The position numbers and the translations under genes were made by a program. Below the pieces are notes generated by a model. It was not told the DNA's origin, searched no databases, and saw nothing but the letters and a program-made list of their open reading frames with translations. DNA of 63,360 nucleotides, counting the filler, from a bacterium (lineage in GTDB: Bacteria > JAJRZV01), in assembly GCA_024275095.1 (NCBI GenBank). It is 4 parts of 4 records of this genome, joined end to end, with 100 filler letters (N's around TTAATTAATTAA, not from the genome) between each part and the next. Parts side by side here need not be neighbours in the genome. Positions count along the whole stretch, not along the records: positions 42,643 to 55,708 come from JAJRZV010000136.1; 3 more parts are not named here. The stretch is one strand, 5' to 3'. Below, in pieces: positions 38,020 through 63,360 of this stretch; positions within the stretch are counted from its first letter, which is position 1, and the number at the start of each line of letters is the position of its first letter.

Positions 38020-38739
38020 ATGAAAAACCACAAAAAAACCACTTTAATCAAAAGGCACGCGTTATGTTTGGTAGGGATTTGCGCGTTTGTCTATTCATGT
38101 GTATTTGGACATTCTTATACAAAATACGAATTTTCCAGCGTTACCGCAGCAAAAATACCGTTCAAAGTAAACAAAATAGTTCAGCTCCCCACCCTGATGA
38201 TGCTGGACGAATGTGCATACGAGAGCGGGCACATGTACGACCACGTGGTAACCGAAAGCCTGAAAGCTGTCCTTTCAGGGCGTCAGATAGATTTCATTCC
38301 TGTACAGGCAGTTTATGAAATTTTCAGCAACGACCTTCGAAACACCGAAGATGCTTACACGTATCTGGCCGGCCTCCAGTACTCTCCTCGAGGAGCACTG
38401 TTCCTTTTCAGGAAAATAGCCGAAAACACCAAAGCAGAATACGGGGTGCTACCCATTGTGTATGTATCGACCGCGGAGACATACGTCAGGAAAGAAGCCC
38501 GAACATCAACCGGGCAAAGCATGGAACAGGCCCGGGGCCTTTCACTTTACGAATACGTCATTGTCTCGTTCGTCAGGTTAACCGACGGGAAAATACTCTA
38601 CCAGTACTTATACGGTGATTGCACGGAAGGCGGACTGGGTGGATATGCCGAATGCGCGTTTGACCCTGTAAGCACGAAAAAACTGACCCGGATAGTATCA
38701 AACGCAATGGAAGCGTTTATAAACAAAACAAGCCGCTGA
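38020..38739 (+). CDS. Hypothetical lipoprotein
   Basis: GGAGG SD; basic N-region, hydrophobic stretch, then VYSC. Confidence 0.65.
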   Translation: MKNHKKTTLIKRHALCLVGICAFVYSCVFGHSYTKYEFSSVTAAKIPFKVNKIVQLPTLMMLDECAYESGHMYDHVVTESLKAVLSGRQIDFIPVQAVYEIFSNDLRNTEDAYTYLAGLQYSPRGALFLFRKIAENTKAEYGVLPIVYVSTAETYVRKEARTSTGQSMEQARGLSLYEYVIVSFVRLTDGKILYQYLYGDCTEGGLGGYAECAFDPVSTKKLTRIVSNAMEAFINKTSR

Positions 38740-38749
38740 GGAGGGGGTC

Positions 38750-39382
38750 ATGGAACGTAAACAATTCACGTTTATACTGCTTTTCATCATAGCAGGTGTT
38801 GTCCTGTCAGGCGGTTGCGCTTCAGCATACAGAATGGCCTACGGTGTACCGGAATTTAAAAGCATGGGCAGCAGAATTCCTTCGGGCGCGTCAATCATAG
38901 TCCTGCCCCCTGTCAATGAAACCCCGGTGAAATTTCTGGCAATGCTATTCCAAGAGCAACTGGTTAACGGCATAAAGAAAAATCGAAAAGGATTCAGGGT
39001 AACAAATGCTTATCAAATGTTTGGATCTGATAAAAATACGGCGGCCCTTTACGACAGGTGCATAGACGAACTGAGAGCCGATAAATTTAAAAATATTGAC
39101 AAAGATTCGTGCGTTGCCGTTTATAACAAAACAGGCGGAGACGTAATCATACTGCCGGTGATTAAAAACCTGAACCTCCATCTGGATGTAAAAATATCCA
39201 GGGGCTCCTTCTACATAAAAGTCAAGTCAATCACGAGGGTGTATTATCTGGACGCAAAGATATATGCCTATTCCAGGAACACCGGGGATATTATATTCAA
39301 AACGGATGGTTCTGTTGCGGCAATAAACGACCTGGAAGATTCAATAACCAGACTGGCAGACCAGATAGCCGAAAACCTGTGA
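38750..39382 (+). CDS. Hypothetical lipoprotein (DUF799/CsgG-like alpha/beta fold suspected)
   Basis: LSGGC lipobox, IIVLPPVNET and a C-terminal IYAYSRNTGDIIF. Confidence 0.7.
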   Translation: MERKQFTFILLFIIAGVVLSGGCASAYRMAYGVPEFKSMGSRIPSGASIIVLPPVNETPVKFLAMLFQEQLVNGIKKNRKGFRVTNAYQMFGSDKNTAALYDRCIDELRADKFKNIDKDSCVAVYNKTGGDVIILPVIKNLNLHLDVKISRGSFYIKVKSITRVYYLDAKIYAYSRNTGDIIFKTDGSVAAINDLEDSITRLADQIAENL

Positions 39383-39400
39383 AAAAAAGGAGGCACCCAA

Positions 39401-40009
39401 ATGAACGAAAAAATGTGTAATATTGCAATCAGAGCGATCATTTCATGCCTGTACATCACGGCAATCGTCTCCTGTGCACCTTCAATGTCGTCGTATGACA
39501 TGAAGTATCGAAAAATTGATTCGGATACCCGGCTGCTGGTATTAAAATGCATTTTTCCAGAAAACACGGAGCACGCGGCAGCCGCAAAGCTCACATGCCG
39601 GCAGGTGGACTCCATAATCGTTGCTTTGTTGGAAACTGGAAATATATTTAAAAACATTTCACAAGTTTCAAAAAACATTTTGAGCGAATCCGAAAAGAAT
39701 TCTTTAGCAAGCCCCATGATTCCATCGATAGAAAAAAGGGTGGCAATAAAAAAGGTAATTAACAAAATTAACAACTCGGCTCAGCAGGAACCTGATTACG
39801 TGCTCCTGCCTTTTGCAACGGTGGCATATTCCCTCGGTTACAGCGGTATCAAACTGGAACTTTACAACACCCAGGGTGAAATGGTGTGGGAAGGCGGAAA
39901 GGTGATAGATTTAGACGACTTTTTCAACTTCAAAAGCAACCAGGATGTCGCAAACATTACACAGGAACTCATAAACAAAATGTACAATGCTTTATCCACG
40001 GAAGAGTGA
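39401..40009 (+). CDS. Hypothetical lipoprotein
   Basis: IVSC lipobox and PDYVLL...LELYNTQGEMVW. Confidence 0.65.
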   Translation: MNEKMCNIAIRAIISCLYITAIVSCAPSMSSYDMKYRKIDSDTRLLVLKCIFPENTEHAAAAKLTCRQVDSIIVALLETGNIFKNISQVSKNILSESEKNSLASPMIPSIEKRVAIKKVINKINNSAQQEPDYVLLPFATVAYSLGYSGIKLELYNTQGEMVWEGGKVIDLDDFFNFKSNQDVANITQELINKMYNALSTEE

Positions 40010-40052
40010 TCAACGAAGTACGATTCACGACTTCTTTCACCGGGGTAACATC

Positions 40053-40637
40053 ATGATCAAAAAGTACAAATGCAACTCAAAATGCCTGGGCCTGTTAATT
40101 ACCTTACTCTTCCCGGTCGTGGCCGGATGCGGCGACATGACACGACTTCCAAACATAGCTGGCAGTTACGAGGGTTTTGTAATTTACACTGACACCACGT
40201 GTGATTGGCCTCTTCCGGCATCCTTTCCTCTGGAAATAACATTTCAATACAAAAGTTTTCCCACAACCATCGAGATTACGATGGACCCCAACCTAATTTT
40301 GTTAAACACGTTAGAACCCGCAGATATTAAATTTGAACAACATCCCTGCATTAAAATTTCCTATGCCACTCCCAGGAATCTGGAAGGCGCAATGTATAAC
40401 CAGCAGGGGAATTTCGCTATTTACACCCCGTCTGAATATGGAATTACCATTACCACAACGTGTTCACCGTATCTTTACATGAGCCTGAGGATTGTACCAT
40501 TTAACGGCCACTACAATGAACAATCGCATAAGGTCGACATAAACGGTACAATATCAATATTCATAAGCCCGGACATCTTCTGTAAATACTCCTGCAGAAT
40601 AACAGGTTATAAAAAAGATAAACATAAAATCGAATAA
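40053..40637 (+). CDS. Hypothetical lipoprotein
   Basis: VAGC lipobox after ATG 40053; beta-rich sequence. Confidence 0.6.
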   Translation: MIKKYKCNSKCLGLLITLLFPVVAGCGDMTRLPNIAGSYEGFVIYTDTTCDWPLPASFPLEITFQYKSFPTTIEITMDPNLILLNTLEPADIKFEQHPCIKISYATPRNLEGAMYNQQGNFAIYTPSEYGITITTTCSPYLYMSLRIVPFNGHYNEQSHKVDINGTISIFISPDIFCKYSCRITGYKKDKHKIE

Positions 40638-40648
40638 AAGGGCGTGAA

Positions 40649-41296
40649 ATGGATAAACACAAATTCTTAAAAAATAAAACACCTGTGGTGTTCGGTATAA
40701 TTTTCTTTGTTTGTTGCCCTGTAAAAAGCACTGCCGGTGATGTACAGCTCAGGCACTTGGGGTTCAATTTTCTCACGGGTGGAAAGGTGATGTTTTCAAA
40801 AGCCTTCAAGGGGAAAACGAGGGTACCGTTCGGCGGCACGTTCGAATTATCTATTTTACCGGTAAAGTACTTCGATATAAACTTGAGGCTTCTCTTCACA
40901 AACATATATTACTCGGCCAAAGAAAAGATCGAATTTGCTGACGGCATTAAAATTGACGCAGGCTCTTTAATCCTTGAAGGAGTGTACATTGGATATGACC
41001 ATAACATTCTTCCGGGTAGAAAACTTAATCCCTTTGCCGAAATTGGACTCAATCTTGCATTCCATGGCCTGAGGGGTGGTGATGTCGATGCTGGAGAATG
41101 GAACATCGACATGCTTATGGGAGGAGGCGTCAAGTTTTATCCTGTAAAATCAGGATGGCTGGAATTAAAACTTGAGGCTGGCGTAAGCATCGAACTTTCA
41201 ACCATTTCAGCAAGTATAGGAAGCATTTATGTAAGTGACGTGTTCAATCCGTCTCACTTTTTCTTTCTGGTGGGTGCAGGATTCAGGGTTTTGTAG
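40649..41296 (+). CDS. Small outer-membrane beta-barrel protein
   Basis: Signal peptide and amphipathic strands (LNPFAEIGL, GGGVKFY, FFLVGAGFRVL). Confidence 0.65.
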   Translation: MDKHKFLKNKTPVVFGIIFFVCCPVKSTAGDVQLRHLGFNFLTGGKVMFSKAFKGKTRVPFGGTFELSILPVKYFDINLRLLFTNIYYSAKEKIEFADGIKIDAGSLILEGVYIGYDHNILPGRKLNPFAEIGLNLAFHGLRGGDVDAGEWNIDMLMGGGVKFYPVKSGWLELKLEAGVSIELSTISASIGSIYVSDVFNPSHFFFLVGAGFRVL

Positions 41297-41489: not shown

Positions 41490-42542
41490 TTACTTAATCG
41501 TGATATCACATGTGGCGTAATTAATAACCCCGTTACCCCCATATACCTTTTGAACACCGTACCAGAGTTTTAAAACGCCGTCTTCATACAGTGCTCCAAC
41601 TGGAAAGTAAGCAATATCTGCCGGGGCAAAAAACGGGTTGTTCTGGCATTTGACCCAGGAAATTCCATCATGTGAGAAAGCACAGTTAAACCCGTTCTGG
41701 CCCGAGTCCAGATTCTCCGTGTAAATCAAGAGGAACAAATCCTGATATACAACGACTCTTCTAACCAGATAACGAGTTGACGGATCTACGAAATCGGGAA
41801 GAGGGTTGTCAGGATTTTTTGTCCAGTTGACTCCATCTGGAGATGTGGCAAGCCCGATCTTAAAACTCTCGGCAGAGGAATCACGATAAGAATAAAACAT
41901 ATAGTATGTACCCTCTTTTACCGTTACTGCAAAGTCGGAAAGGTTCCACCACTGGCCGTTTGAGGGGAATACGGGATTGCCCTCGTACAGGGTCCAGGAT
42001 ATTCCGTCATCTGAAGTTGCATACCCGTACTGTTTATTACCGTACAGGTTTACCTCGTTTCCCCAGTAGAAAGCTTCATAGCCTTTCTGTGGATCGTACA
42101 GGAGGTTGTAAGCACATACCCTGTGGTATGCCCAGTCTTCCTGCTTGTTCGGAAACACAGGATTGGTGTCTGCCCTGGTCCAGTTTAACCCATCCGGTGA
42201 TACAGCAAGATATGTTTGCTCCTGGTTATCGCCTGTATTTGCCCAGTAATCTATGTACATTTTGTAGCCCACACTATCTCTCAGAACACCAATTTGTCTA
42301 ATTGCTGCTTCCCAGGTACCTCCTCCTCTTACGAATACAGGATTTCCAGCATAATCAGTGCAGCTGATGGTATATGAACACGAAAGACCTTCATTTGTTT
42401 TTCCATTGCAATTGTTATCCCAGCCATCGCATACCTCTGTGCTTTCCACACAGACACCTGCAGATTCAGGGTTGAGCGCCACCACCCCCAGCGTCACATC
42501 CAGCGCGTACTCGCTCAGGCACACGAACTTCACCGTCTCAGC
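41490..42542 (-). CDS. Five-bladed beta-propeller glycoside hydrolase-like protein with a MopE-like motif (5' partial)
   Basis: EVCDGWDNNCNG motif and four S.DG..W....NP repeats; truncated by the gap. Confidence 0.7.
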   Translation of the reverse strand, partial: AETVKFVCLSEYALDVTLGVVALNPESAGVCVESTEVCDGWDNNCNGKTNEGLSCSYTISCTDYAGNPVFVRGGGTWEAAIRQIGVLRDSVGYKMYIDYWANTGDNQEQTYLAVSPDGLNWTRADTNPVFPNKQEDWAYHRVCAYNLLYDPQKGYEAFYWGNEVNLYGNKQYGYATSDDGISWTLYEGNPVFPSNGQWWNLSDFAVTVKEGTYYMFYSYRDSSAESFKIGLATSPDGVNWTKNPDNPLPDFVDPSTRYLVRRVVVYQDLFLLIYTENLDSGQNGFNCAFSHDGISWVKCQNNPFFAPADIAYFPVGALYEDGVLKLWYGVQKVYGGNGVINYATCDITIK

Positions 42543-43384: not shown

Positions 43385-43945
43385 TCAAAATTGTAGCAGC
43401 CCTGTCAATTTTTTGACAAAAACATGGCCTGCAAACACCCAAATGAAATAAAAAATTACAACAATTGCTAAATGATATTCCCGATTTCCGGTGAAACGTC
43501 TCAAGCTCCATTTTCCTTCTGATGACGTGAATCTGAACGATCTGGGAACAAAGCGGGGGGTCCTTGAGGCATAAAGCTGATATTCAGTGCCAAACCGCAC
43601 GGCAAGTAGCCTTTCTTCTTCAAGAGCAGCCAGGGTGTGGATGTAAAAAAAGATGGGAAAATAACAAACAAGCAACCACCACAATGCGCCCCCGACACCC
43701 ATTCCTACCATTACCAGAAAACTGCCCAAATAAAGTGGGTGCCTGACAAGACTGTAAGGACCACTGGTGGTGAGCTTGACGTTTTTCTCGATGTGGCCAG
43801 CAGCCCAGGCTCTGATGGTAAATCCTGCCAATGCAAGTACAAAACCCGCTATCCAGGTTTCTTTTTGATAATGCGAAAATGCCAGAGCGAGGATAAAGAA
43901 TAACGTATTGATCATCACCCTGTATTTCAAAAGCATTTTCTTCAT
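43385..43945 (-). CDS. ICMT/PEMT-family membrane methyltransferase
   Basis: Motifs IRAWAAGH, LTTSGPYSLVRHPLYLG and EEE..L...FG.EY..Y...TPRFVP. Confidence 0.9.
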   Translation of the reverse strand: MKKMLLKYRVMINTLFFILALAFSHYQKETWIAGFVLALAGFTIRAWAAGHIEKNVKLTTSGPYSLVRHPLYLGSFLVMVGMGVGGALWWLLVCYFPIFFYIHTLAALEEERLLAVRFGTEYQLYASRTPRFVPRSFRFTSSEGKWSLRRFTGNREYHLAIVVIFYFIWVFAGHVFVKKLTGLLQF

Positions 43946-44814
43946 CTGTTCCTCTCTTCACTCGAGCTGGCAGGTGGGATGTTTTTCCACCGGTCATGCA
44001 TCCAGAGATACTGCTCGGGATAACGCCGAATATAAACCTCCAGCGCACGTGAATACAGAGAAAAAAACTCTTCAGGTGTGGCTGCGTCCTCAATAATTGA
44101 CAGGTATTCCACGCAAAGACTACCTTTTTTGAAATTGGTAAATGCAATGACAGCAGGTGCGCCAGTGCGTTTCATAAGTAGATACGGACTTCGGGGGAAG
44201 CTCGCTGGTTTATTAAAAAACTCCACAAACAGGGCTTTTTCGTAAGGAGTGTTGTGATCCGGTAGTATGGCCACATCACGTTTTGCACGGAGTATCCTCG
44301 ACATCTGGTAGAAAGAACCGTGAAATGGCACCTGGTGCATCCGCATTTTACTTCTCAATTCGACAAGCAATTCTTCAACTTTGGAATTTCTCACGGGTCT
44401 GCCCACGGTGCACAACCCCCCGTAACGAATGGCATGTGCAAATCCTCCAAGTTCCCAGTTGCCCACGTGTGCTGTCAGTATAATCACCCCTGAGCCTTTT
44501 CTACGAGCCTCTTCGTACAGATCTACACCCCTCAATCTCAAATGTTCCTCAAACCATCCCTTACCTTTCCTCAGCACATGAGCTGTTAGCAAAGTCATAC
44601 TCCCCAGATGAGCAAAATGCTTCAATGCAGTGAGAAGGCGCCACCGTCTTGATCTTTGAGGAAATGCCTGTCGAAGATTTTTAAGAGCAATTAACCATCG
44701 CCCCGGGAGAAAAAAAGACGCAATAACACCAATTATTGCCCCACCAAAAACTACCAGTTTTTCTGGTAAAAATCCTGCAAGGTTGATTGCGATTTTAAGA
44801 ACGCGGGCTATCAT
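43942..44814 (-). CDS. lpxL: Lipid A late acyltransferase (LpxL/HtrB family)
   Basis: Motifs NLRQAFP, LTAHVGNWE, ILPD and PEQYLWMHDRWK. Confidence 0.85.
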   Translation of the reverse strand: MIARVLKIAINLAGFLPEKLVVFGGAIIGVIASFFLPGRWLIALKNLRQAFPQRSRRWRLLTALKHFAHLGSMTLLTAHVLRKGKGWFEEHLRLRGVDLYEEARRKGSGVIILTAHVGNWELGGFAHAIRYGGLCTVGRPVRNSKVEELLVELRSKMRMHQVPFHGSFYQMSRILRAKRDVAILPDHNTPYEKALFVEFFNKPASFPRSPYLLMKRTGAPAVIAFTNFKKGSLCVEYLSIIEDAATPEEFFSLYSRALEVYIRRYPEQYLWMHDRWKNIPPASSSEERNR

Positions 44815-45820
44815 CTTGAGTTATACGCTGTAAAAGTATTTTAAAAAACTCCTCTTCATCCGATATGCTCAATTGGATGTCAACAACTATCGTCTTTTCT
44901 TTAACGTCTCGCGGCCAGGTGTCTGAACCATATCGGAGCCGGTCTTTCAAGGTTATAACCACATACGAGGCATCACCCTGATTTAAAGCACGGACCATTT
45001 CGTTCAAATGTTTTTTTTGAAAAACTCCGTGGTCTCCAACAATGATACTTTTTTTTATTTTAAAGTATTTTTCCATTCCCTTTATAAAACGGTAAGGATG
45101 TGCAATACCACAGGCTACCACCACATCTGTTCCCTGTATTTCGGAGGGTGATACGCGTTCGAGTCGCCAGTTATAAAACACCTGCTTCTCATCAACTAAA
45201 AAAATACTTGTGTGCGGAAAACGCTGTGAAATTAAAGCAGGAATTTTTTCAAAATTTCTAAGCACCAGAATTTCATCTCCACGCAAAAAAGAAGGAATAA
45301 CTCTGTGAAGACATCGAGGTTTCAAACGCTCAACATCTGAATAATCTTTCCCATTCAATATTACAATGTCAGCGTTTCTGTATATGTAATATGAAATATA
45401 AGCATCATCCATAATAACAACCGTTTTTTCCAGAAAAGGAACAGATTTTAATGCTGCTCTCTTAGAGGGTCCAGCCAGGACTTTAATATGGAGTGGAGCA
45501 AGGTAAAATGCCTGAAGTGCAGCTTCATCCGGGACAAACATTTTTGCCTCTTTTATATCTTCCACTGTAACAGTATTTTTAAGCCAGCTTTTGTACGAAT
45601 GAGAAACCAGATATACATTCCAACCATGCTGATTAAAAAGTGAAGCCAGAAATACGCATAATGGACTTTTGCCCGCTCCGCCTGCAGAGAGCGAGCCCAC
45701 TGAGATAACTGGAACAGGTGCTCTGTACACCTGTGAGGTTAGCCAATCAAAATATTTTGTCCTTGCCCGCACACACCAGGAGTAAAAAACGCTTGCCAAA
45801 TATATACACTTCTCTCTCAC
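44795..45820 (-). CDS. lpxK: Tetraacyldisaccharide 4'-kinase (divergent)
   Basis: Motifs PVPVISVGSL..GGAGKSP, DE, MDD, CGIAHP..F, DH and TLKD; lies between kdtA and lpxL. Confidence 0.8.
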   Translation of the reverse strand: MREKCIYLASVFYSWCVRARTKYFDWLTSQVYRAPVPVISVGSLSAGGAGKSPLCVFLASLFNQHGWNVYLVSHSYKSWLKNTVTVEDIKEAKMFVPDEAALQAFYLAPLHIKVLAGPSKRAALKSVPFLEKTVVIMDDAYISYYIYRNADIVILNGKDYSDVERLKPRCLHRVIPSFLRGDEILVLRNFEKIPALISQRFPHTSIFLVDEKQVFYNWRLERVSPSEIQGTDVVVACGIAHPYRFIKGMEKYFKIKKSIIVGDHGVFQKKHLNEMVRALNQGDASYVVITLKDRLRYGSDTWPRDVKEKTIVVDIQLSISDEEEFFKILLQRITQDDSPRS

Positions 45821-47085
45821 CTGGACTCTCCACCATGTACACGTCGAATAACATCCACGGTAACTTCCAGGCCGTCTATCGTCTTTAAAATCTCCACAAG
45901 TTCATCCCGTTGACATGGAGGGCCCGACTGAAGAAACTTATCCACAGCAGTCACAACAGCCTCTTCCGAATGTGCAATACACACGCAACCTCTCCTGGCA
46001 AGTTCCTGCACTTCCACTTCATAATTCCAGTGATACGGCCCTACCACCACAGGGACTCCACAAAAAAGAGGTTCGTAAATATTGTGGCCGCCTTTACGTG
46101 AAAAAGATCCTCCCATCACCGCGACAGCCATTGCAGGAAAAAGCGTGTTTAACACGCCCATCTTATCAATTACCATCACTTTCGAATTCTTTGTTTCACC
46201 TGAACTGTACAAAGAATAATCAATGCCATTGTCACTGAGTAACTTCAACAAAACACGCAAAGTATGCAGGTGTCTCGGAGCGATTAGATGAAAGCAGTGT
46301 TTTAACCTTTGAACAGCTCTTATTAACACGGGAAATTCATCTTTGTGAAAGCTCACCCATAACACAGCTTTAGTACTTGAAATCACATGATCGAGAAAGG
46401 AAGGTGGAGAGACGGAAACGGAATATTCCCTGAGCTTGAGCGTACCACCTGTGATAACGTCACGAAGCCCGGGGAAAATTTTACGATAATAAAAAGCGCT
46501 TGAGCTATCTGCAAGGCACACTGTGCGCACGGCCGGAGCACCAGGCCTTAACAAAACTTTCATTATTGAAACCGTCTTGCGCCTCATAAAACCGGCACGA
46601 GCCGCAACAAGAACTACAGGGACACGAAAAATACGACACAAAAATAAAAAAGAAGGCCAGGTTTCACCTTCTATGATAACTACACATGCGGGCCGGACCT
46701 TTTTTAACCACATTGCCGCAATAAAAATCATATCCAGTGGAAACAAAAAGGCCCATTTGATTAAATGGGGTTGGGCTCTTAATACCTGAAGTCCCTCCGG
46801 TGTCATGGAGGCCGCCGCAATGCGTAAATTTACACTATCCTTCTTCAGAACTTCCACAAGCCTTAATACGCTTTTCGCCTCGCCCACAGAAGGTGCGTAA
46901 AATAAATAATCCGGATTGATATCCGGAATGTTCAACGCAAACCTCTCTTTCAACCCTTTTCTCCAGCGGGGCCTGCTCAAGCTGAGAAGTAAAAAAATGG
47001 GAAAAATTGAAACGAATATAACAATCCACATAAAATTGTACAGGGCTATAATAATGTAATCTATTACCATGCCCCCATTCTCCAT
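45817..47085 (-). CDS. waaA: Kdo transferase
   Basis: Motifs SVGE, PLD, EGETWP, IAPRH, DKMGVL and GGSF..KGGHNIYEP. Confidence 0.88.
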   Translation of the reverse strand: MENGGMVIDYIIIALYNFMWIVIFVSIFPIFLLLSLSRPRWRKGLKERFALNIPDINPDYLFYAPSVGEAKSVLRLVEVLKKDSVNLRIAAASMTPEGLQVLRAQPHLIKWAFLFPLDMIFIAAMWLKKVRPACVVIIEGETWPSFLFLCRIFRVPVVLVAARAGFMRRKTVSIMKVLLRPGAPAVRTVCLADSSSAFYYRKIFPGLRDVITGGTLKLREYSVSVSPPSFLDHVISSTKAVLWVSFHKDEFPVLIRAVQRLKHCFHLIAPRHLHTLRVLLKLLSDNGIDYSLYSSGETKNSKVMVIDKMGVLNTLFPAMAVAVMGGSFSRKGGHNIYEPLFCGVPVVVGPYHWNYEVEVQELARRGCVCIAHSEEAVVTAVDKFLQSGPPCQRDELVEILKTIDGLEVTVDVIRRVHGGESR

Positions 47086-47645
47086 TGAAGTTCTTCCAGA
47101 GCACAGTGTTGCAGGTCACAGACAGAACCATGATAAATAATCTCTATCCGGGCAAACGGAAGAGGTATAATCGTTTTATCCCATGTAGGAAGGCGTATAC
47201 AGGATGACACCTTAACTTCCACAGGAACAACAGGAACACCGGCCCGCTTTGCAAGTACGAGCCCGCCCTTTTTCAACCTGCCAGGAGGCCCTTTTGGGCC
47301 GTCTCCGGCCATGGCCACACGAAATCCCGAACGAAGATAACGTGTAAGCCTCAATAATGCTTCAAAACCTCCCTTTGACGATGAACCCCTTACAACTGTA
47401 TACCCTCGCCGCATTGAAAGAGCTGCTGCGGCCATATCACCATCCCGGCTCTGTGAAACCAGGATAGCCACTCGTTTAAAACGGTACAGTGGATAAAGAA
47501 GTAGCATATAAGAATGCCAGAAAAGGTACACAGCGGCTTTACCTTCGACAAAAGCACCTTTTTGGTTTACATATCTGATCCGCCACGTACGGGCAAGAAG
47601 TATCAATATCAATCCTATCACCTTGCCGGCCAGTTTTCTCAGCAT
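47064..47645 (-). CDS. DUF374 lysophospholipid acyltransferase-like protein
   Basis: Motifs FWH, LVSQSRDG, VRGSSSKGG, DGPKGP and WDK..IPLPF. Confidence 0.85.
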   Translation of the reverse strand: MLRKLAGKVIGLILILLARTWRIRYVNQKGAFVEGKAAVYLFWHSYMLLLYPLYRFKRVAILVSQSRDGDMAAAALSMRRGYTVVRGSSSKGGFEALLRLTRYLRSGFRVAMAGDGPKGPPGRLKKGGLVLAKRAGVPVVPVEVKVSSCIRLPTWDKTIIPLPFARIEIIYHGSVCDLQHCALEELQWRMGAW

Positions 47646-47796: not shown

Positions 47797-50664
47797 TTAA
47801 CGGCAGGTGTCATTATACACTGATACTTCTCCGGTGTTATCAGTTACAATGTAAACCCTCGCATAATTCATTGCCGGAAGTCGCAAGGTACTCAGATAAT
47901 AAGCGCGCCTGATATGATTAGAAGGACTTATGGCAGAAAGGTTCAGTGTGCTCGGGTCAGTCGCATTAAGTACAATAACCCCATTGTACTCCGTCGCCTC
48001 AACGAGATAACGTGAAATGGAAAGCCCACTTCCACCTTCTATGTAAAGCATATCCTTGATATTGTCTTTACTTCCTATGTCCCCTTCGAAAAGCTTTAGA
48101 AGATTGAGGTCAACATCATAGACTGCTGTCTTCAAATCCGTTCCCAAGGCGACGTAAAGATACTGGCCGTCAAAAGAGGCTGCCACAGCCGTTGGGTACA
48201 TGCTTGCAGGAAGGTACGCCTTGGCAACCGGTGACACCGTTCCCGACGGATTTGCTCCGTCAAAGCGATAGATACTTGTATTGGATATCACATAAACAGA
48301 GTCGCCTCCTGAAGCTATAAAGGTGTTACTACTATCGATAAAGGCCCCGCTCTGCGCCACGAGAGACAACACATCTCCTGTGCGTTTGTAAACTTTAAGT
48401 TGAAAGGCTGTTCCCGAGGGTGCACACATCCACAAATAGTCATCCGTGCCGGACGCATACGCGTCGAGGCATATCACATTACCTCCTCCTGATATAGTGG
48501 CAATACGTCGGGGGTTTTCCGGTTGTGTAATGGAATACACATAGACGCTGTTTCCCCCTGCAAGCGCGTAGAGGTACTGGTTCTCCGTCGTACTCAAGCG
48601 GGTAATAGAAGCCTCTTCATCAATACGTGCAATAATGGGGGGGACATCATTGGCAGCATCTATGTTCCTGAAATCAAACACACTGATTCCACCATCTCCT
48701 TCCGCAGTCAGCAATATTGCAGATGGTTCGAAACCTTCGAGATCTACAGGAACGTTGCTTAAATCAAGATGACTGTCAAATACAATTGAAGCAGGAGAGA
48801 GGTCATGAAGAGAAATACCTCTTCCCATACCTGCAGTGAGAACAATTTGCCTGCCACCCTGATCCGCTCTTGCAATTCCATAAGCTCTTCCCACACCTGT
48901 AGATGGGTACACACAGGTGATAGCACCCGGCAATCCTTCTTTCAGTTGAGAACAAAAGTGAGCATTGGACTCCACACAACCAGTGCCCGGGAGCACGTAT
49001 ATCTCCTCCCAGCCGTGGTAATCCCAGGCAATGTAAGCAACAGTATCAGAGAAGGGATACGCATCCCGTACAATTTTTGGATAATAGTGATTGTAATCAT
49101 ACCCGCCGTCGTAGTTATCGTTAAATTCGCATCCAGTAACCGGAGCCGGTGCTGATGTGAGAGGATCCGCATAAATAGAATACACCCTCAGCCCGAATGG
49201 ACAGTTTGTAGCAGTACAGGTGGGCCACTCCACCGCGTAAAGCAAACGCGAAGAGTCCATGATTTCCACCTTTTCGACAGGGTACGACTCCGGTCTGAAA
49301 TTAAAGCTGGCCGTTCCTATCACGCTGATGCTCGGGGACACCCTCACACGAGCTACAAAAAGTTTATTGGTGACATCCTCGCCATAGTGCGAGACAAACA
49401 CGTAGTGATCTCCACTCACTGCATCTTCCAGAACAGCGACGTCATTCAAAACGAGAGTTGTTCCAGCTCCCGTAAGCTGCCTTATGTTTATGATTTTGCA
49501 CTGATTAAATCCCTGAAAGTTATCGGGATCGCTGACATCACATGCGTATACCGTATCATAATCCTGCATGAGATACACCACCGTGACACCCGCCGGACTG
49601 TCCTCCACATCAAGTCTTCGAGTGTTCAGAGTGAGAGTATTTGAAGAAGGAATGAGCACGGGATTCGCCGGGTCACTGAGATCGTACATGCGTATTCCAC
49701 CGTAAGCAATGAACAGAACAGGCCTTGTTCCATAAAAATGGATCACCATATCTCCTGAAACAGCGGGAATCCGGGTAACAAACACCGGAGCATCCGGATC
49801 AGTCACGTCTATGATCCATGTGCCTCCACCTGAATGGTTGACCACGGCATAGAGCCTACCGTTGTAAGAAAGAGGTAAAATATCCTGCGATGAACCACCT
49901 GCCATAAAAGAATTAAAATAATCGAACACGCATGAACAGATAACCTGTTCACACTCGTCAGAGTCAAAATATCCACCATCATCAGCAGCACCTATCACAG
50001 GAGAATATATGCCGGAGGAAATGTAGCAGTAATCAAACGTGAACTCCTGTTCCCCGGTTCCTGTGAGAGTGGTATTGTAGTCGTAAATGCCGTCTCCATT
50101 TGTGTCCAGCATAATGGGCCCAAAATCTGCATCATCGTATACAACTGCACGAAATGTGTAGTTGCACGAACAGGAAGGCTGAGGATTAATCTGCCGTGAA
50201 TCACACTGTACAAAAAGAGGAAGGTTTTTTCGTACATTAACACTTGACCTTACAGAACACATCTGACCGTCAGACTTTAATGCTGTCACAACCACCGGAT
50301 AATCATTCTCAAGTGCCCCCGGAGCAACATTGAACACGTGGGTAAAACTTTCGCTGAATGTACTACCCGCCTCGTCATCAGAAAATTCACGTGAATAAAT
50401 CCAATCAAAGGAGTCTCCTGTTGCAACACCGATGAAAGAGTAGGGATTATCCTCTACCGTTACAGAGATATTCACCCTCATGGGTTCTCGACCCTGAAGA
50501 GGTGTAACGGAGAGAATTACATCCGGGCATTCGGAAGGCTTCGATTTGTCACACGAACAACCCGCATTTAAGTAAAGCGTTAATAAAAGAAATACTCCAC
50601 CTGCCGCAAATAGTGATCGTTGTTTATTCAATAAGCCGCCTATGTTCCAGGTTCCTTCATCCAC
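47797..50664 (-). CDS. Large lipoprotein with PKD/Ig-like domains and an LVIVD-like repeat beta-propeller
   Basis: LNAGCSC lipobox and repeats such as GTWIIDVTDPDAP, GIRMYDLSDPANP and VYVYSITQPENP. Confidence 0.7.
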   Translation of the reverse strand: MDEGTWNIGGLLNKQRSLFAAGGVFLLLTLYLNAGCSCDKSKPSECPDVILSVTPLQGREPMRVNISVTVEDNPYSFIGVATGDSFDWIYSREFSDDEAGSTFSESFTHVFNVAPGALENDYPVVVTALKSDGQMCSVRSSVNVRKNLPLFVQCDSRQINPQPSCSCNYTFRAVVYDDADFGPIMLDTNGDGIYDYNTTLTGTGEQEFTFDYCYISSGIYSPVIGAADDGGYFDSDECEQVICSCVFDYFNSFMAGGSSQDILPLSYNGRLYAVVNHSGGGTWIIDVTDPDAPVFVTRIPAVSGDMVIHFYGTRPVLFIAYGGIRMYDLSDPANPVLIPSSNTLTLNTRRLDVEDSPAGVTVVYLMQDYDTVYACDVSDPDNFQGFNQCKIINIRQLTGAGTTLVLNDVAVLEDAVSGDHYVFVSHYGEDVTNKLFVARVRVSPSISVIGTASFNFRPESYPVEKVEIMDSSRLLYAVEWPTCTATNCPFGLRVYSIYADPLTSAPAPVTGCEFNDNYDGGYDYNHYYPKIVRDAYPFSDTVAYIAWDYHGWEEIYVLPGTGCVESNAHFCSQLKEGLPGAITCVYPSTGVGRAYGIARADQGGRQIVLTAGMGRGISLHDLSPASIVFDSHLDLSNVPVDLEGFEPSAILLTAEGDGGISVFDFRNIDAANDVPPIIARIDEEASITRLSTTENQYLYALAGGNSVYVYSITQPENPRRIATISGGGNVICLDAYASGTDDYLWMCAPSGTAFQLKVYKRTGDVLSLVAQSGAFIDSSNTFIASGGDSVYVISNTSIYRFDGANPSGTVSPVAKAYLPASMYPTAVAASFDGQYLYVALGTDLKTAVYDVDLNLLKLFEGDIGSKDNIKDMLYIEGGSGLSISRYLVEATEYNGVIVLNATDPSTLNLSAISPSNHIRRAYYLSTLRLPAMNYARVYIVTDNTGEVSVYNDTCR

Positions 50665-53600
50665 GGCGCATTTTAAGATAGAAACCGCCCACGAAGACCA
50701 GCATCATCAGGAAAGTGACCATCATGCCGGTGTTACCTGTAGAATGTGTCATAACACATCCAAATGAAGAAAGAATCACGTCAGATTCACTTTCAGGAAC
50801 ACCGTCTGTTACCATGAAACGATATTTGATTTCACTGACGTTACCAAGGTCATCGAATGCCCTGATGCGGAGCGTGTGAATTCCGAGATCAAGATTTTCC
50901 AGCACCACCTTTCTGTTGAGTGTGGGTTCCGTCCATCCTTTCTCATCAAGATTGTAACTGACAGTTACCTTGTCATCCGGAGCCTGCCAGTCATGAGCAT
51001 AAATTTGAAATTCAAGTCGGCGCTCGTGTACCTCCGCCGGAATATTGGGAATGGTGGCAAGGTGAGGCCCCACCCGGTCAACACGGAAGGTGTAAACTGC
51101 CGGTGTTGCATCAATAAATCCATCAGTATCCTTAGCCATCACCTCCAGACGATGGGTGCCCTCGCGAATCACGGGGAAGGCTATGTTGTCAGATTTGAAG
51201 AAGGGTGACCACACCCCGTTATCTATCCGGTAGGAATACTGTATTTCAGAAGCAGGGGTCTTGTCATCCACCGCGGTGAAATACGCACCATAGGTTACAT
51301 CGTCAATAGGTTTAACCTCAGTAATAATTGTCTCCGGTATGGAAGAGGAAAGCTCGGAAGTCTCAGACGCCAGATCACCGGAAGGCGGGGCAAGGCCCAG
51401 GCTTCCAACATTCAAATCACTCAAACCCTCGAGAATATCGAAGACAAACTTCGCATCAATTCCGCTCTGCCAGAGATCTATGTACATGGCAAAGTAATTC
51501 CCTGCTGGGTCATCATCAGGGGTGGTGTCCCCTGCTGCTCCGATGACAGGCGCGGTAATGCTCAATTGAGCAGGTTTGATGAGGGGAGAGATGTCCAGAG
51601 TAACCGACATGTTTGCACCCATGATGCCGCTCAGCAGTATGGGCAATATATCCCCCATAAACTTTTCATAGTCGGCAGAAGTGGGATAAACGGTATTGGT
51701 TGTCTCAACAATATTGAGCACCGTGGGATCCAATACAAATCCGGCAAAAATGCGGAATGCAGTGGTTGTATCACACACAGGCGGGTTCACCACACCGCAA
51801 CGTTCTATATCCAGGCCCACGCCGATAAACAAATCGAGTTCCATGCGAAAGATTTTCTGCCATCCCGAAGCCTGTGTATCCACCCAGAAATCCAGGTACA
51901 TGTGAGGCACACGCATGATAAGGTCATTATACACGTAAAAAGTACCACCAGATGCTGTTGGTATGGAGGTTGCAGCCTCGGTGGTATACGCCCTGGTCTT
52001 ATCTGCGTTCAGAGAGGCTTCAAACATCGGCACCACAGAAATACGCATGTCCCTATCGGGCTCTTTCTGGGGCAAATCGGGCAGGAAAAAGCCAAAAACA
52101 TCTGTGTTAAGTACGGATGTTAAGGATTCTCCTATAGTGGGGGTATCACGATCAAGCGTGATGGACATAATTCCGTCTCTCAAAACTTCGTAAATAATTT
52201 CCGAAACCACCTGCTCGTGAAGGGCGACTCCTATATCATACCCAGCAGTTCCTACGGTGTTGCCGGTAAAAGGCAAGGTGTACCAATCCGTGGCAGTTGT
52301 GAAGGTGGTGGGCGGTAAAACAAGCACAGGTGCATAATCAGTTATCACTTCGATGTACGAATCTGAGCAGAAATTCGACGTGGCCACGCAGCCGATTGTC
52401 CCGGCTCCATTGTAGCACGGGTCACACACCCAGTTAGACGAAAGCCTGGGATCCACATTGAGCGCATTTAACCAGTAGGTATCTATATTAAGCTGTCCCA
52501 GGATCATGCCCCCGTTGTAACTCCCTCCCCACGGCCTGTAACAGTACCACGCATTCGCAGCCACGTCGTAACCGATGTAGTCATAGCCGATGGGATGAGT
52601 GATTCCTCCCCTCCATACGGCAGAGACCGGGTCATAATAAGGATTTTGAAGGGTACTGGTTAAATCAAACGCGCGGGTGCATCCAACGTACTGATCCAGC
52701 GCGCTGGAAATGGTGCTATCGAACCATGCACGAAATTCTGCATCGAAAAACGGCACGACCTGCGTGAGCTGTTCTGTTGCATCGCAGTCACACCAGAGGT
52801 CTGAACACCCAACAGTGGTAGGGTCTGCATAGGTAGAGGATATGGCATCGGTATAGTCCGGGTACCCGTCACCGTCACTGTCCGGGCACTGGTTGGTGCC
52901 TGACGACACCGTGCAATCCGCGCCGTCAAGGCATTCACAATTATCCGGTACCTGCCAGTCATACTGAAACTGAGCCCCCACGTAAATATCCCCCATACAA
53001 ATATTCAAATACTGGGTGTGGGGATCAGTGCTTTCCTTGTGCTGGAGCGCAGGTGCCAGTTCCACATCCAGGGAAACCCCACACGGTGGGTTGGGGCAGT
53101 ACAGGGAAGTCCCGGCCTTGGCGTCAACGTATATATAATCGTCACACCGGGTAGATGCAGGACCGGCAAGCCAGTTGGGATCTGACGTAACAGGTGCAGT
53201 CCACGGACGGCCAAACCGCAGTTCCAACTCGATGTCTTTGAGGAAGATATGAAAATGAATGGCATCGTCTGTATCAGAGGTATCGTAAGGAAAACAGGTA
53301 TCCGGCAGATCAGTCTCAGTTCCTTCGGTCGAGTACATCACTGCATTACTACCATTGGGGGGTGGCGTTGAATAATCATACTGAACAACCCATGGATCAC
53401 TGTCAATGTTCTGCAACTGCACGGCAAAACAGACATTTCCAAGCAGAGGGATATCCATGCACTCATCCATTAACCAGTCGGGCTCCCATCCCTTGCAGTA
53501 CATGTAGTCATCCTGGCCATCGTCACATCCCGTGGTTCCCACGCTTGCGGCCGGAGAACCTGCCTCGCATGAGCCCGTAAAATTCGCGGAAGAACACACT

Positions 53601-53902
53601 GTATCACCATTATCATCCTGGTAACAGAGCTTGCCCTCCCAGCAAAACTCCACGGGAGTCGAGTAATTATCATCATCAGTGAAGCGCCGGAACAAAAGAT
53701 CAAGGTAATTCTGGGTCAAGCTGTTATTGATGACGTTGGCAAGGATTTCATTGATAAACCCGAATCCTGTATCCGTAATGGCCACAACAATGTTATTGGT
53801 CATGGAACCTGCAAACGTGGATGCTCGGGCTTCTAACGAAAACCCTGCGACAAAAATCATACTGATAATACTTATTAGAAATCCTTTTTTAATCATTTCC
53901 AT
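50657..53902 (-). CDS. Large secreted Cys/Asp-rich protein, possible BPI/LBP-like fold, two C-terminal Ig-like domains and a CTERM-like sorting tail
   Basis: Signal peptide, DSDGDG Ca-type motif, QYSYRIDNG.W...G.H..EV.A.D domains, and a tail of FGC-spacer-TM-KMRRG. Confidence 0.7.
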   Translation of the reverse strand: MEMIKKGFLISIISMIFVAGFSLEARASTFAGSMTNNIVVAITDTGFGFINEILANVINNSLTQNYLDLLFRRFTDDDNYSTPVEFCWEGKLCYQDDNGDTVCSSANFTGSCEAGSPAASVGTTGCDDGQDDYMYCKGWEPDWLMDECMDIPLLGNVCFAVQLQNIDSDPWVVQYDYSTPPPNGSNAVMYSTEGTETDLPDTCFPYDTSDTDDAIHFHIFLKDIELELRFGRPWTAPVTSDPNWLAGPASTRCDDYIYVDAKAGTSLYCPNPPCGVSLDVELAPALQHKESTDPHTQYLNICMGDIYVGAQFQYDWQVPDNCECLDGADCTVSSGTNQCPDSDGDGYPDYTDAISSTYADPTTVGCSDLWCDCDATEQLTQVVPFFDAEFRAWFDSTISSALDQYVGCTRAFDLTSTLQNPYYDPVSAVWRGGITHPIGYDYIGYDVAANAWYCYRPWGGSYNGGMILGQLNIDTYWLNALNVDPRLSSNWVCDPCYNGAGTIGCVATSNFCSDSYIEVITDYAPVLVLPPTTFTTATDWYTLPFTGNTVGTAGYDIGVALHEQVVSEIIYEVLRDGIMSITLDRDTPTIGESLTSVLNTDVFGFFLPDLPQKEPDRDMRISVVPMFEASLNADKTRAYTTEAATSIPTASGGTFYVYNDLIMRVPHMYLDFWVDTQASGWQKIFRMELDLFIGVGLDIERCGVVNPPVCDTTTAFRIFAGFVLDPTVLNIVETTNTVYPTSADYEKFMGDILPILLSGIMGANMSVTLDISPLIKPAQLSITAPVIGAAGDTTPDDDPAGNYFAMYIDLWQSGIDAKFVFDILEGLSDLNVGSLGLAPPSGDLASETSELSSSIPETIITEVKPIDDVTYGAYFTAVDDKTPASEIQYSYRIDNGVWSPFFKSDNIAFPVIREGTHRLEVMAKDTDGFIDATPAVYTFRVDRVGPHLATIPNIPAEVHERRLEFQIYAHDWQAPDDKVTVSYNLDEKGWTEPTLNRKVVLENLDLGIHTLRIRAFDDLGNVSEIKYRFMVTDGVPESESDVILSSFGCVMTHSTGNTGMMVTFLMMLVFVGGFYLKMRRG

Positions 53903-54011
53903 ACCCCCCGGGCATAGCTGTAATTTTATTATCTTACAAAACCTCTCTCCAAGTCAAGATTTACACGGTCTCCATTTCCACAAGCAAGGGTGACATTTAA
54001 AATTATCCGCC

Positions 54012-55181: not shown

Positions 55182-55708
55182 TTATATCTTCTCCGCGATT
55201 TTGTGGAGAGAGAAAACCACAGAAAAAAACAACAACCCAGGCAAAATTACAGCAAAAGGCTGAAGTAATAGATATTCCGTGCCCTCAGCAATGATACGAC
55301 CGATACTTTCTGTCTCCGGGGGACCCACTCCCAGAAAACTTAGAGACGCCTCTGTAAGCATGCTTCCTGCTACGGTAAGAAGCACCTGGACTCTCACACC
55401 GCTTTCAATCTGAGGAAAAACGTGATAAAGAAGCGTACGCCCCGGGGATGCTCCGGTAGAGACATTCGCTGCCACAAAATCCTGTGATACAACTCTCATT
55501 GCTATACCTCGACTGATACGGGCGAAACCAACCCATGCAAAAGAAGCAATGGCCAGAATTACATTGGTAAATGAAGGTCCCAGAAAAGCGGCGAATGCCA
55601 GTGCAAGTAAAAATCCGGGGAAAGCCTGAAACACTTCCAGAACTCTCATAAACACCGCATCAACCAATCCTCCTGCGTAACCCGAGAGTATCCCGCAAAA
55701 GGTTCCGA
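55182..55708 (-). CDS. Peptide/nickel ABC transporter permease (DppC/OppC-like), 5' partial
   Basis: Motifs AFPGFLLAL, W..FARI.RG, GAS..R....HVFP and EASLSFLG.G. Confidence 0.85.
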
Positions 55709-55808
55709 NNNNNNNNNNNNNNNNNNNNNNNNNNNNNNNNNNNNNNNNNNNNTTAATTAATTAANNNNNNNNNNNNNNNNNNNNNNNNNNNNNNNNNNNN
55801 NNNNNNNN
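55709..55808. other. Artificial assembly spacer
   Basis: N-run with TTAATTAATTAA. Confidence 0.98.
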
Positions 55809-56342
55809 AAGGTGAAACTCTTTTCAGAAGATGGGAAACCCCTGCGCTTCTGGCACATAGGGCGCGTGGGTGAGATATGCGTAAAAGGCAAAACAGTGAT
55901 GAAGGGGTATATGGTCGGTGGGCAGCTCAAGCGTGATAATTTTTACGGTGATTGGATGCGCACCGGTGACCTTGCTCGCAAACGGCTTTTTGGATTTACC
56001 TTTGTGGGCCGGGAGAAGGACAGACTCAAAGTGGGTGGATACTCCGTCTTCCCCGCGGAAGTGGAAGCGGAACTGCGGGCTCATCCGGATATTGAAGATG
56101 CAGTGGTGTTTCCCATCCCCCACGAAGTGAAAGGGGAGCTCCCTCTCGCTGCTGTGAAACTGAGAGAAGGTGCTTCTCTTACAGAAGAAGCGCTTATGGA
56201 ATGGATTAAAAACAATATCGCTCCGTATAAAGCACCGCGTAAGGTTGTTTTTGTCCCTGAATTTCCCAGGAATCTCACCCTGAAGGTGCTCAGGACTGAA
56301 TTGAGCAATCAGTACAGACATCTTGCAGCTGAGTTTCAGTGA
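55809..56342 (+). CDS. Acyl-CoA synthetase / AMP-binding enzyme C-terminus (partial)
   Basis: Motifs GEICVKG..VMKGY, W.RTGDL, GR.KD..KVGG..VFPAEVE and YKAPR. Confidence 0.9.
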   Translation, partial: KVKLFSEDGKPLRFWHIGRVGEICVKGKTVMKGYMVGGQLKRDNFYGDWMRTGDLARKRLFGFTFVGREKDRLKVGGYSVFPAEVEAELRAHPDIEDAVVFPIPHEVKGELPLAAVKLREGASLTEEALMEWIKNNIAPYKAPRKVVFVPEFPRNLTLKVLRTELSNQYRHLAAEFQ

Positions 56343-61426: not shown

Positions 61427-62089
61427 GTGAAATATTTAAGGGACGGCCTGATTTTAACATTATTAATATATATCGTGCTCGTTGCATTCGCTCTGGTATC
61501 AATTCATTTTTCTTCACTTGTAAGTTTGCGTCCTGTGGTGACAGCTGTTTTGTTTTTGTACGTGCCGCTTTTATGGGCGCGTATGAGAAGGTATCCCGTG
61601 GAATTGTTTGGGTTTAATTTTTCTGATTTGCCCGGCCAATTGAAGGATTTTATGGTAGTTGTGCTCTGGGTTTTCCCGGTATTTGCAGGAGGATTTTTAT
61701 TCTATCATCGGGTGATACTGGGTTTTCACTACACTTGGGCTATTCCTCATCAGCCTCTTCAAAAAGTACTTTTTCATTTATTCGGAGCAGCCCTTCCAGA
61801 GGAACTTTACTTTCGAGGTTTCCTTCAGCAATTGTGTAATGAGGATCTGCGTCGTAGATGGCACTCCTTTGGTGCCTCGTGGGGCCCGGGAGTTTTTGTC
61901 TCGGCATTACTGTTTGCAATGGGACACCTTGTTTTTGATCCCCGCCCCGAGCGTCTCGCGGTGTTCGTTCCCGGCGTTTTATTCGGCGTTCTCCGTGAGC
62001 GCCACGACAGCATAGCGCTTCCCGTGCTTCTTCACTGGAGTGCCAACGTGATGGTAGATTGGTTGAGCGAGGGGATTCTTCTTTTCTGA
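61427..62089 (+). CDS. CPBP/CAAX glutamic intramembrane protease, myxosortase (Mrt)-like
   Basis: Motifs PEELYFRGFLQ, LFAMGH, RLAVFVPGVLFGVLRER and LHWSAN. Confidence 0.8.
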   Translation: MKYLRDGLILTLLIYIVLVAFALVSIHFSSLVSLRPVVTAVLFLYVPLLWARMRRYPVELFGFNFSDLPGQLKDFMVVVLWVFPVFAGGFLFYHRVILGFHYTWAIPHQPLQKVLFHLFGAALPEELYFRGFLQQLCNEDLRRRWHSFGASWGPGVFVSALLFAMGHLVFDPRPERLAVFVPGVLFGVLRERHDSIALPVLLHWSANVMVDWLSEGILLF

Positions 62090-62252: not shown

Positions 62253-63360
62253 ATGAGAGTGTTCAAATATGGGCCAATTATAGCAGCGATTTTTTTGTGC
62301 AGTACGGCTGGGGCATCAGAGAGCCTGTGGGAGCCGCTGGTAAACTTTGAAGCTCCACAGAAACACGTTACTGTCGTGTTTGACACAGAACACGGGTGTG
62401 ATCCCACAAATTCTTACCGCGGTGCATGGTATCCTGCCACGCCCGGTCAGGATGCAAGCCAGGGTGGTCCCTGCTATGAAAATGAAAATTTCGCGGATGA
62501 GTACCTGATCATTCGTATTACCAAGCCCGGAATGGACTACATCGCTAACCTTGTCAGAAATATTATGACCGATGATTCTATCCTTGCTTTCGCAGATTCA
62601 CTGATGAAGCTCTTTACAGACCAGGATACCAGGCCCATCTCACCGGATCAGATTACCACCACACCCCAGGGGCATCCACTGGCACCCTGGAGATGTGCCA
62701 CATACCAGTCAAATATGACCATCAGCGCATGTGATGGCATGCAGATCTGTGTTGACGGCTCAGATGACGAAGAGATTTACGGGCCCTCCAACGGTGGTGC
62801 CGATGGATGGGGTGGTGACGGTATATATTTTCAGTATATCTGCGGGTTTGATCCATGGATGCCTCCTGGTGCCACTTCTGTAGCAGATGATATTGGAAAA
62901 GGAATATTTAGCACCTGCATGACAGTTCCTCTCGTGGGTCCTGTCTGCCTCAACATGGCAATAGCAGATGTAAACGATATTCCCGGAGTAAGTACCTGGC
63001 ATCCTGACACCGATGATTCGGCCTCCGCTACCCTCCCAACGATCAGCCGTGTAATTTACTGGAACCCTGACGACGTGAGCGTGCAACTTGAATCAGACAT
63101 TGGTACCAAATGTGAAGAATATAAAATTGACCGTGACGGTGATGGATTCGTGGATGCAACCATCGCATGCGATTACTGGCCCCACACTCATGACGACAGC
63201 CTGCAGTTTAAACTCCAGATAAACAATCCCATTATTGACGTGCTTCTTGACTGGCGTCCGAGAGCCACCTCGTTTGGGGGAACAGTCACCGATTACTGTA
63301 CTCCAGCAACGTCCGACCCGGACATTGATGACGAGTGCGGAACCGGAGAAATTCAAATTC
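62253..63360 (+). CDS. Secreted Cys/Asp-rich protein, paralog of 50657-53902 (3' end beyond window)
   Basis: Not in the ORF track. ATG after AGGAGG, open to the window end, with a signal peptide, LIIRITKPGMDYIAN, CMTVPLVGPVC and DRDGDG. Confidence 0.85.
   Translation, partial: MRVFKYGPIIAAIFLCSTAGASESLWEPLVNFEAPQKHVTVVFDTEHGCDPTNSYRGAWYPATPGQDASQGGPCYENENFADEYLIIRITKPGMDYIANLVRNIMTDDSILAFADSLMKLFTDQDTRPISPDQITTTPQGHPLAPWRCATYQSNMTISACDGMQICVDGSDDEEIYGPSNGGADGWGGDGIYFQYICGFDPWMPPGATSVADDIGKGIFSTCMTVPLVGPVCLNMAIADVNDIPGVSTWHPDTDDSASATLPTISRVIYWNPDDVSVQLESDIGTKCEEYKIDRDGDGFVDATIACDYWPHTHDDSLQFKLQINNPIIDVLLDWRPRATSFGGTVTDYCTPATSDPDIDDECGTGEIQI

Follow-up and report, generated by a model that had tools for sequence, protein, structure and literature searches.

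A predicted BPI-like double-TULIP protein with Ig-like stalk domains and a putative surface-sorting tail in a bacterial genome

A minus-strand open reading frame (ORF) at positions 50657–53902 of a 63,360-nucleotide stretch of bacterial DNA (lineage JAJRZV01, assembly GCA_024275095.1; four parts of four records joined end to end, filler included, and referred to as the window) encodes a large exported protein. Structure models indicate that this protein very likely adopts a TULIP fold resembling that of BPI, LBP and CETP. The evidence covers the domain order, the predicted resemblance to BPI, the conservation of a C-terminal tag and a myxosortase-family gene that the window also contains. Overall, the fold assignment is well-supported and the function is inferred; given such a fold, binding or transfer of lipids would be a reasonable expectation for the protein.

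Predicted fold and sequence signals

An AlphaFold2 model of residues 30–860 was built from a 17-sequence alignment. Its mean predicted local distance difference test (pLDDT) score is 46.4, rising to 70–82 across model residues ~526–760. In a Foldseek comparison with the PDB, the first five places were taken by BPI (E 1.6e-6 and 4.5e-6), LBP (2.9e-5 and 4.4e-5) and CETP (4.9e-5), and BPIFA1/SPLUNC1 came next at E ~0.13. Since this model is confident only over the C-lobe and matches BPI, the assignment of the C-lobe holds for the window protein itself.

A second model was built from a 21-sequence alignment for the homologue P0007, which is 26–27% identical to the window protein and free of its insertions. 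Here the mean pLDDT is 61, with 72–87 over the C-lobe, and the predicted structure runs from helix through long strands to helix, an arrangement occurring twice with strands in between. Its Foldseek matches are BPI (E 1.1e-11), CETP (2.7e-10) and LBP (1.9e-8), and the equivalent of the N-lobe (pLDDT 45–67) aligns to BPI 15–250 within a 373-residue alignment, at a root-mean-square deviation (rmsd) of 8.8 Å. TM-scores of the models to BPI are 0.26–0.37, and the predicted C-terminal tubular lobe is superposable on the BPI C-domain. The two-lobed BPI/LBP/CETP-like fold proposed by an earlier, sequence-only reading of this DNA is thereby supported by structure prediction, by three independent structure searches and by weak sequence signals, with exactly those families ranking top in Foldseek.

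At the level of sequence, the Pfam model PF02886 (LBP_BPI_CETP_C) aligns to residues 558–624 with 13.0 bits (E 0.067). The same profile region is found at E <=1 in 7 of the 21 aligned members (best 0.0046, all under the cutoff), and one additional relative matches it at E 0.0022; the best score of a relative is 17.9 bits. When the family profile was compared with all PDB sequences, the best non-Ig match was BPI 292–318 (E 0.16 and 0.2), a C-domain segment pairing with the family consensus LnTdtFgfllPkL...m.i.v, and a PDB sequence search with the single window protein returned chance-level matches only. Those ESM Atlas neighbours of the two lobes that carry a named family are TULIP only (LBP_BPI_CETP(_C), BPI-like, OrfX-like and DUF4403); scores of 0.81–0.88 make them leads only. 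These sequence signals agree with a BPI-like fold but are weak.

Domain architecture

The ORF comprises 1081 aa, and both protein segments quoted in the sequence-only reading were recovered from it: NNIVVAITDTGFGFINEIL occupies residues 36–54, nine residues past the likely signal-peptide cut, and YDIGVALHEQVVSEIIYEVLRDGIMSITL occupies residues 555–583. Because the database copy of the protein has 1079 aa, the second Met (M3, at 53896) is the probable start of translation. A promoter-like site at 53957–53928 matches 10 of 12 positions; in promoter and terminator scans of the region, site counts were no higher than shuffled expectation. The protein can be divided as follows.

53819..53902, minus strand: signal peptide, residues 1–28, with a KK n-region, a hydrophobic core and an ARA/ST site (judged by eye)
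52268..53800, minus strand: N-lobe, residues ~35–545, predicted N-terminal TULIP barrel with large Cys/Asp-rich insertions
51464..52246, minus strand: C-lobe, residues 553–813, predicted TULIP barrel that is the counterpart of the BPI C-terminal domain
51068..51307, minus strand: Ig-like domain 1, residues ~866–945
50807..51040, minus strand: Ig-like domain 2, residues ~955–1032 (NCBIfam OmpL47-type; P0007 model)
50660..50767, minus strand: C-terminal sorting tag, residues ~1046–1081, with an SSFGC motif, a hydrophobic helix and KMRRG

Ig-like domain 2 scores 28.7 bits (E 1.4e-6) with the NCBIfam OmpL47-type model, whose cutoff is 40, and the Ig-like domains match Pfam Y_Y_Y at E 4.3e-4, under its cutoff. 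The ~780 residues lying between the signal peptide and these domains contain no family above threshold.

The window-protein N-lobe aligns with the N-lobes of the homologues P0005, P0006 and P0007. Compared with P0006 and P0007, the window protein has 12 insertions of at least 8 residues, and the insertions specific to its lineage total more than 200 residues of the N-lobe. The Cys/Asp-rich segments are mostly missing from P0006 and P0007, which identifies them as lineage-specific insertions. Of the 28 Cys residues in the ectodomain, 26 fall within residues 87–512, and P0005 retains 25 of the 28; one further Cys lies in the tail. The Cys/Asp-rich insertions described from the sequence earlier are therefore real. 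Residues 341–349 of the N-lobe read DSDGDGYPD. The mature protein is strongly acidic, with 149 Asp+Glu against 49 Lys+Arg.

C-terminal tag and probable surface anchoring

MYXO-CTERM signals combine a Cys motif, a transmembrane helix and an Arg-rich end; lipidation is predicted for proteins carrying them, and MrtX-dependent cleavage and surface localisation are described in the reports concerned (PMC11980579; 10.1101/2023.06.07.544157). All three parts of a signal of this type, that is, Cys motif, transmembrane helix and short basic end, are present in the tail of the window protein, and the SSFGC-helix-KMRRG tail is unique among the window's frames of at least 100 aa. Of 17 family members, 15 have a Cys motif near the C-terminus, with the consensus GFGC, and 13 have the complete tail with helix and basic end. 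The distant relatives at loci L001, L002 and L004 lack the tail and have an apparent N-terminal lipoprotein-type signal instead.

A candidate tag-processing enzyme is also encoded in the window:

61427..62089, plus strand: myxosortase-family CPBP intramembrane protease (NCBIfam NF040914, Pfam Rce1-like)

This ORF of 220 aa scores 102.1 bits with NF040914 (Mrt_core), whose cutoff is 100, with MrtP (E 4.5e-37) and MrtC (E 1.7e-35) as the leading full-length matches. The gene stands directly upstream of a second family member, 7.5 kb along the window from the 50657–53902 gene. By analogy with MYXO-CTERM proteins, anchoring of the 50657–53902 protein at the surface through its tag is likely. The surface display suggested in the sequence-only reading thus finds support both in the family-wide tag of Cys, helix and basic end and in the myxosortase-family gene.

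Family and second member in the window

Members of the family are rare: when 1.84 billion cluster representatives were scanned exhaustively with phmmer, using residues 30–860 as query, 16 proteins were found at E <=0.001, 7 of them at E <=1e-10. The nearest relative is P0005 (52% identity), and the conserved core of the family corresponds to window-protein residues ~530–835. A profile search of a 5.8-billion set, made with full-length alignment rows, returned the protein's own copy, P0005 and 8 large multidomain Ig-like/repeat proteins; the latter were probably matched through the Ig-like domains of the homologues, so that this search is uninformative for the TULIP part.

The window also contains a further member of the family:

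62253..63359, plus strand: second family member, N-terminal 369 aa, cut by the window end (BLASTP, similarity to P0008)

The paralogue proposed earlier at 62505–62540 is borne out here, with LIIRITKPGMDY forming residues 85–96 of this 3'-open ORF. Its direct BLASTP similarity to the 50657–53902 protein is marginal (E 0.001, 20% identity), and paralogy is established by way of P0008, a family member of 1330 aa whose tail carries GFGC. The N-terminus of P0008 shares 52% identity with the ORF (E 4e-124), and P0008 in turn matches the 50657–53902 protein at E 9.5e-17; the window therefore holds two family members.

Three loci of relatives were compared in their flanks: L001, from a Polyangia metagenome-assembled genome (MAG); L003, from an unclassified MAG; and L012, from a genome of the same small phylum as L003. 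In that phylum of roughly 2-Mb genomes, a common cluster is found at L003 9692–18798 and L012 5122–16934, made up of a TULIP member, a protein of 410/419 aa that belongs to no family, a protein with BNR_4 repeats and one or two more TULIP paralogues.

Genomic neighbourhood

Two neighbouring units lie downstream on the same strand:

47797..50664, minus strand: P0002, a 955-aa lipoprotein (LNAGC lipobox) whose gene overlaps the 50657–53902 gene by 8 nt
43385..47645, minus strand: lipid A operon, DUF374-kdtA-lpxK-lpxL and a PEMT/LmtA-like methyltransferase (Pfam, NCBIfam)

P0002 has weak LVIVD and choice-of-anchor-B matches and is probably beta-propeller-like. Its homologues are itself and P0030 only (Beta_propel and LVIVD domains, E 5.4e-10); no sequence relative was found in the PDB, and no homologue at loci L001–L003. 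P0002 is a possible partner of the 50657–53902 protein.

The DUF374, kdtA, lpxK and lpxL genes lie at 43942–47645; together with the methyltransferase gene they mutually overlap by 4–22 nt, and a 152-nt AT-rich gap with a hairpin separates them from the P0002 gene. The lipid A operon probably forms a transcription unit of its own. The arrangement stated in the sequence-only reading, co-directional with and one gene upstream of this operon, is correct, 47797–50664 being the gene in between. The functional link drawn from it fared less well. None of the three relatives' loci (L001, L003, L012) has lipid A genes in its flanks, so the lipid A neighbourhood is not a conserved feature, and the excess of 149 acidic over 49 basic residues argues against a BPI-style binding of anionic lipid A. 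With the 955-aa gene and the 152-nt gap also intervening, a functional tie between the 50657–53902 gene and the lipid A operon is very unlikely.

The lipid A cluster ends with a gene (43385–43945, minus strand) for a PEMT/ICMT-type methyltransferase. The best NCBIfam match of this enzyme, far below cutoff, is the Leptospira lipid A Kdo2 1-phosphate O-methyltransferase LmtA (E 2.2e-14), which hints at a methylated lipid A phosphate.

Several other features were observed elsewhere in the window. BamA is apparently split at 20793–23077 (minus strand), with five POTRA repeats and the first part of Omp85 in 21299–23077 and Omp85 positions 170–325 in ORF 20793–21290; the frame change near 21290–21300 suggests a frameshift or an assembly error. 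At 31028–34575 (minus strand), an 878-aa fusion of a Ser/Thr protein kinase and a UvrD-type helicase directly follows an ARPP-1 family protein (33661–34575), and together they could form a defence or signalling module. Five tandem ORFs of 202–239 aa with lipoprotein-like N-termini occupy 38020–41296 (plus strand); they have no Pfam match and no mutual BLASTP similarity at E <=1e-3. A 347-aa protein at 41490–42533 (minus strand) has a MopE-like Cys-rich metal-binding motif and a GH32/GH130-like propeller signal. At 55182–56342, a short BPD_transp_1 permease ORF (161 aa) stands back to back with a C-terminal-only AMP-binding ORF (176 aa), and both may be gene remnants.

Proposed mechanism and alternative explanations

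The explanation moderately favoured here is that of a cell-envelope protein composed of a signal peptide, a BPI-like double-TULIP module, two Ig-like stalk domains and a Cys sorting tag, acting as follows. The protein would be exported by Sec and would form up to 14 disulfides, mostly in the Cys/Asp-rich loops of the N-lobe. Its tail would retain it in the inner membrane until the protease encoded at 61427–62089 cuts off the helix and the basic end. By analogy with MYXO-CTERM proteins, the cleaved form would then be lipid-anchored through Cys1049 and transferred to the cell surface, where the Ig-like domains would keep the ~780-residue TULIP module clear of the outer membrane. If the fold is a guide to function, the two hydrophobic tubes would load acyl lipids and either shuttle or bridge them between the outer membrane of the cell itself and a second lipid source, for which neighbouring or prey cells, vesicles and environmental lipids are candidates. 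The acidic Cys/Asp loops with their DxDxDG-type motif probably bind Ca2+ and confer rigidity or target recognition.

Several results weigh against this explanation. The alignments behind both models are shallow (17–21 sequences). The N-lobe of the window-protein model stays below pLDDT 50–60, so the two-lobe status rests mainly on P0007, whose own N-lobe combines low confidence with a large rmsd to BPI. The gathering score of PF02886 (23 bits) is not reached by the window protein, PF01273 (the N-terminal model) has no match at E <=1 in the window protein, its paralogue or the 21 aligned members, and over the TULIP part all Pfam and NCBIfam models stay under their cutoffs. The BPI profile match at E 0.16 is by itself not significant. 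An hhalign comparison of N-lobe and C-lobe sub-alignments gave E 0.46, with no internal-repeat similarity, a result that says little either way. The strong negative charge of the mature protein is unlike LPS-binding BPI (LPS, lipopolysaccharide). With regard to the tail, an NCBIfam scan of the last 42 residues at E <=10 found LPXTG_anchor only (E 0.17) and no curated CTERM model; such short models are hard to match, and the tail is accordingly termed MYXO-CTERM-like only. The candidate protease also scores under the MrtP, MrtC and MrtX subtype cutoffs.

The possibility that the resemblance to BPI is an artefact of low-confidence models and weak matches, masking an unrelated beta-rich fold, draws on the mean pLDDT values of 46 and 61, on TM-scores of only 0.26–0.37 and on the fact that every sequence match lies under curated cutoffs. 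It is nevertheless most improbable, as two separately built models, three search methods, Pfam, the PDB profile search and the ESM Atlas converge on one family, and the matched C-lobe is the best-predicted part (pLDDT 70–87). A role as an LPS/lipid A binding or transfer factor working with the DUF374-kdtA-lpxK-lpxL operon would suit a gene that shares the strand of the lipid A genes and lies two genes upstream of them, in a wider window rich in envelope genes (BamA, LptF/G-like, polysaccharide synthesis and a sulfatase-family enzyme), and the best fold matches, BPI and LBP, are described as binding LPS (PMC10584675). Against it stand the 955-aa gene and AT-rich gap before the tightly overlapping lipid A genes, the three relatives' loci and the acidity of the protein. 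Moreover, TULIP ligands are diverse, since CETP and TipA are reported to carry neutral lipids or phospholipids (10.1101/2025.09.09.675085; PMC5507252). Such a role is improbable.

Alternatively, the protein could act in adhesion or recognition at the surface, with the TULIP-like lobes serving mainly as a scaffold without transporting lipids, while variable, probably Ca2+-binding Cys/Asp loops and the Ig-like domains bind, for example, polysaccharide, matrix or another cell. The lineage-specific N-lobe insertions, the occurrence of the DSDGDGYPD motif, the combination of Ig-like domains with a surface tag that is typical of adhesins, and the tandem paralogue clusters formed by relatives beside BNR-repeat proteins all point in this direction. 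However, the conserved core of the family is the TULIP C-lobe and not the loops, most insertions are missing in P0006 and P0007, and the characterised TULIPs named in 10.1101/2025.09.09.675085 and PMC5507252 all handle hydrophobic ligands. An adhesin with a TULIP-like scaffold is consequently regarded as unlikely.

If the lipid-handling envelope protein described above does transfer lipids at the surface, the family would open a route to understanding how lipids are moved beyond the outer membrane in diderm bacteria, and would add a piece of evidence on the bacterial ancestry of BPI/LBP/CETP. A more specific version, in which a lipid-anchored, Ca2+-stiffened BPI homologue on an Ig stalk would exchange lipids between the outer membranes of touching cells, is quite unlikely. 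Were it true, it could serve outer-membrane exchange among kin, or predation, in myxobacteria-like bacteria, and the PF02886 echo would mark close bacterial kin of eukaryotic BPI/LBP/CETP, with a bearing on the origin of a family involved in innate immunity.

Comparison with known systems

The predicted protein resembles human BPI, LBP and CETP (PDB 1bp1, 1ewf, 4m4d, 2obd) in being secreted and in its two probable tubular lobes, and these three are the best structural matches of both models. As in BPI, each lobe would have a helix-strands-helix order and the lobes would be arranged around a central sheet. Unlike BPI, the TULIP module spans ~780 rather than ~456 residues, its N-lobe carries Cys/Asp-rich insertions with 26 Cys, and it is strongly acidic. 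The window protein additionally has two Ig-like domains and a membrane-sorting tail, and it stays under Pfam thresholds, with no PF01273 signal. Single-domain TULIPs (YceB/DUF1439, P47, OrfX and DUF4403) lie far behind BPI in score; they differ in having a single lobe or another arrangement, and they possess neither Ig domains nor a sorting tag.

Among bacteria, the single-lobe TULIPs YceB, P47/OrfX and DUF4403 have been known for longer (PMC5507252; PMC6791001), and structural relatives of human BPI are reported from AFDB clustering (PMC10584675). BPI-like double TULIPs have been reported only recently, with TipA as the one structurally and biochemically studied case. Some double TULIPs are fused to beta-rich domains, one of them with a C-terminal beta-sandwich (10.1101/2025.09.09.675085), which parallels the two Ig-like domains of the window protein. 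Because bacterial BPI-like double TULIPs are already published, the family described here is not a new kind. Like TipA, the window protein is bacterial and secreted, is predicted to be a BPI-like double TULIP, and is encoded beside a possible partner gene; the absence of TipA from the PDB match lists is uninformative. In contrast to TipA/TipB, the downstream gene encodes a 955-aa lipoprotein with weak LVIVD/propeller signals and not a small C2-like sandwich, the beta-sandwich domains are fused in cis, and the protein would be anchored by its Cys, transmembrane and basic tag rather than released.

The tail resembles MYXO-CTERM in its Cys motif, transmembrane helix and basic end, and the 220-aa protease passes the myxosortase core model; unlike established MYXO-CTERM systems, the tail fits no curated CTERM model and the protease lies below the MrtX, MrtC and MrtP cutoffs. 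The family adds a different architecture to the bacterial double TULIPs, that of a probably surface-tethered module on an Ig-like stalk. What sets it apart is an N-lobe that is much enlarged, acidic and rich in predicted disulfides, together with the Ig-like stalk, the Cys tag accompanied by a myxosortase-family neighbour, and a faint direct sequence link to PF02886.

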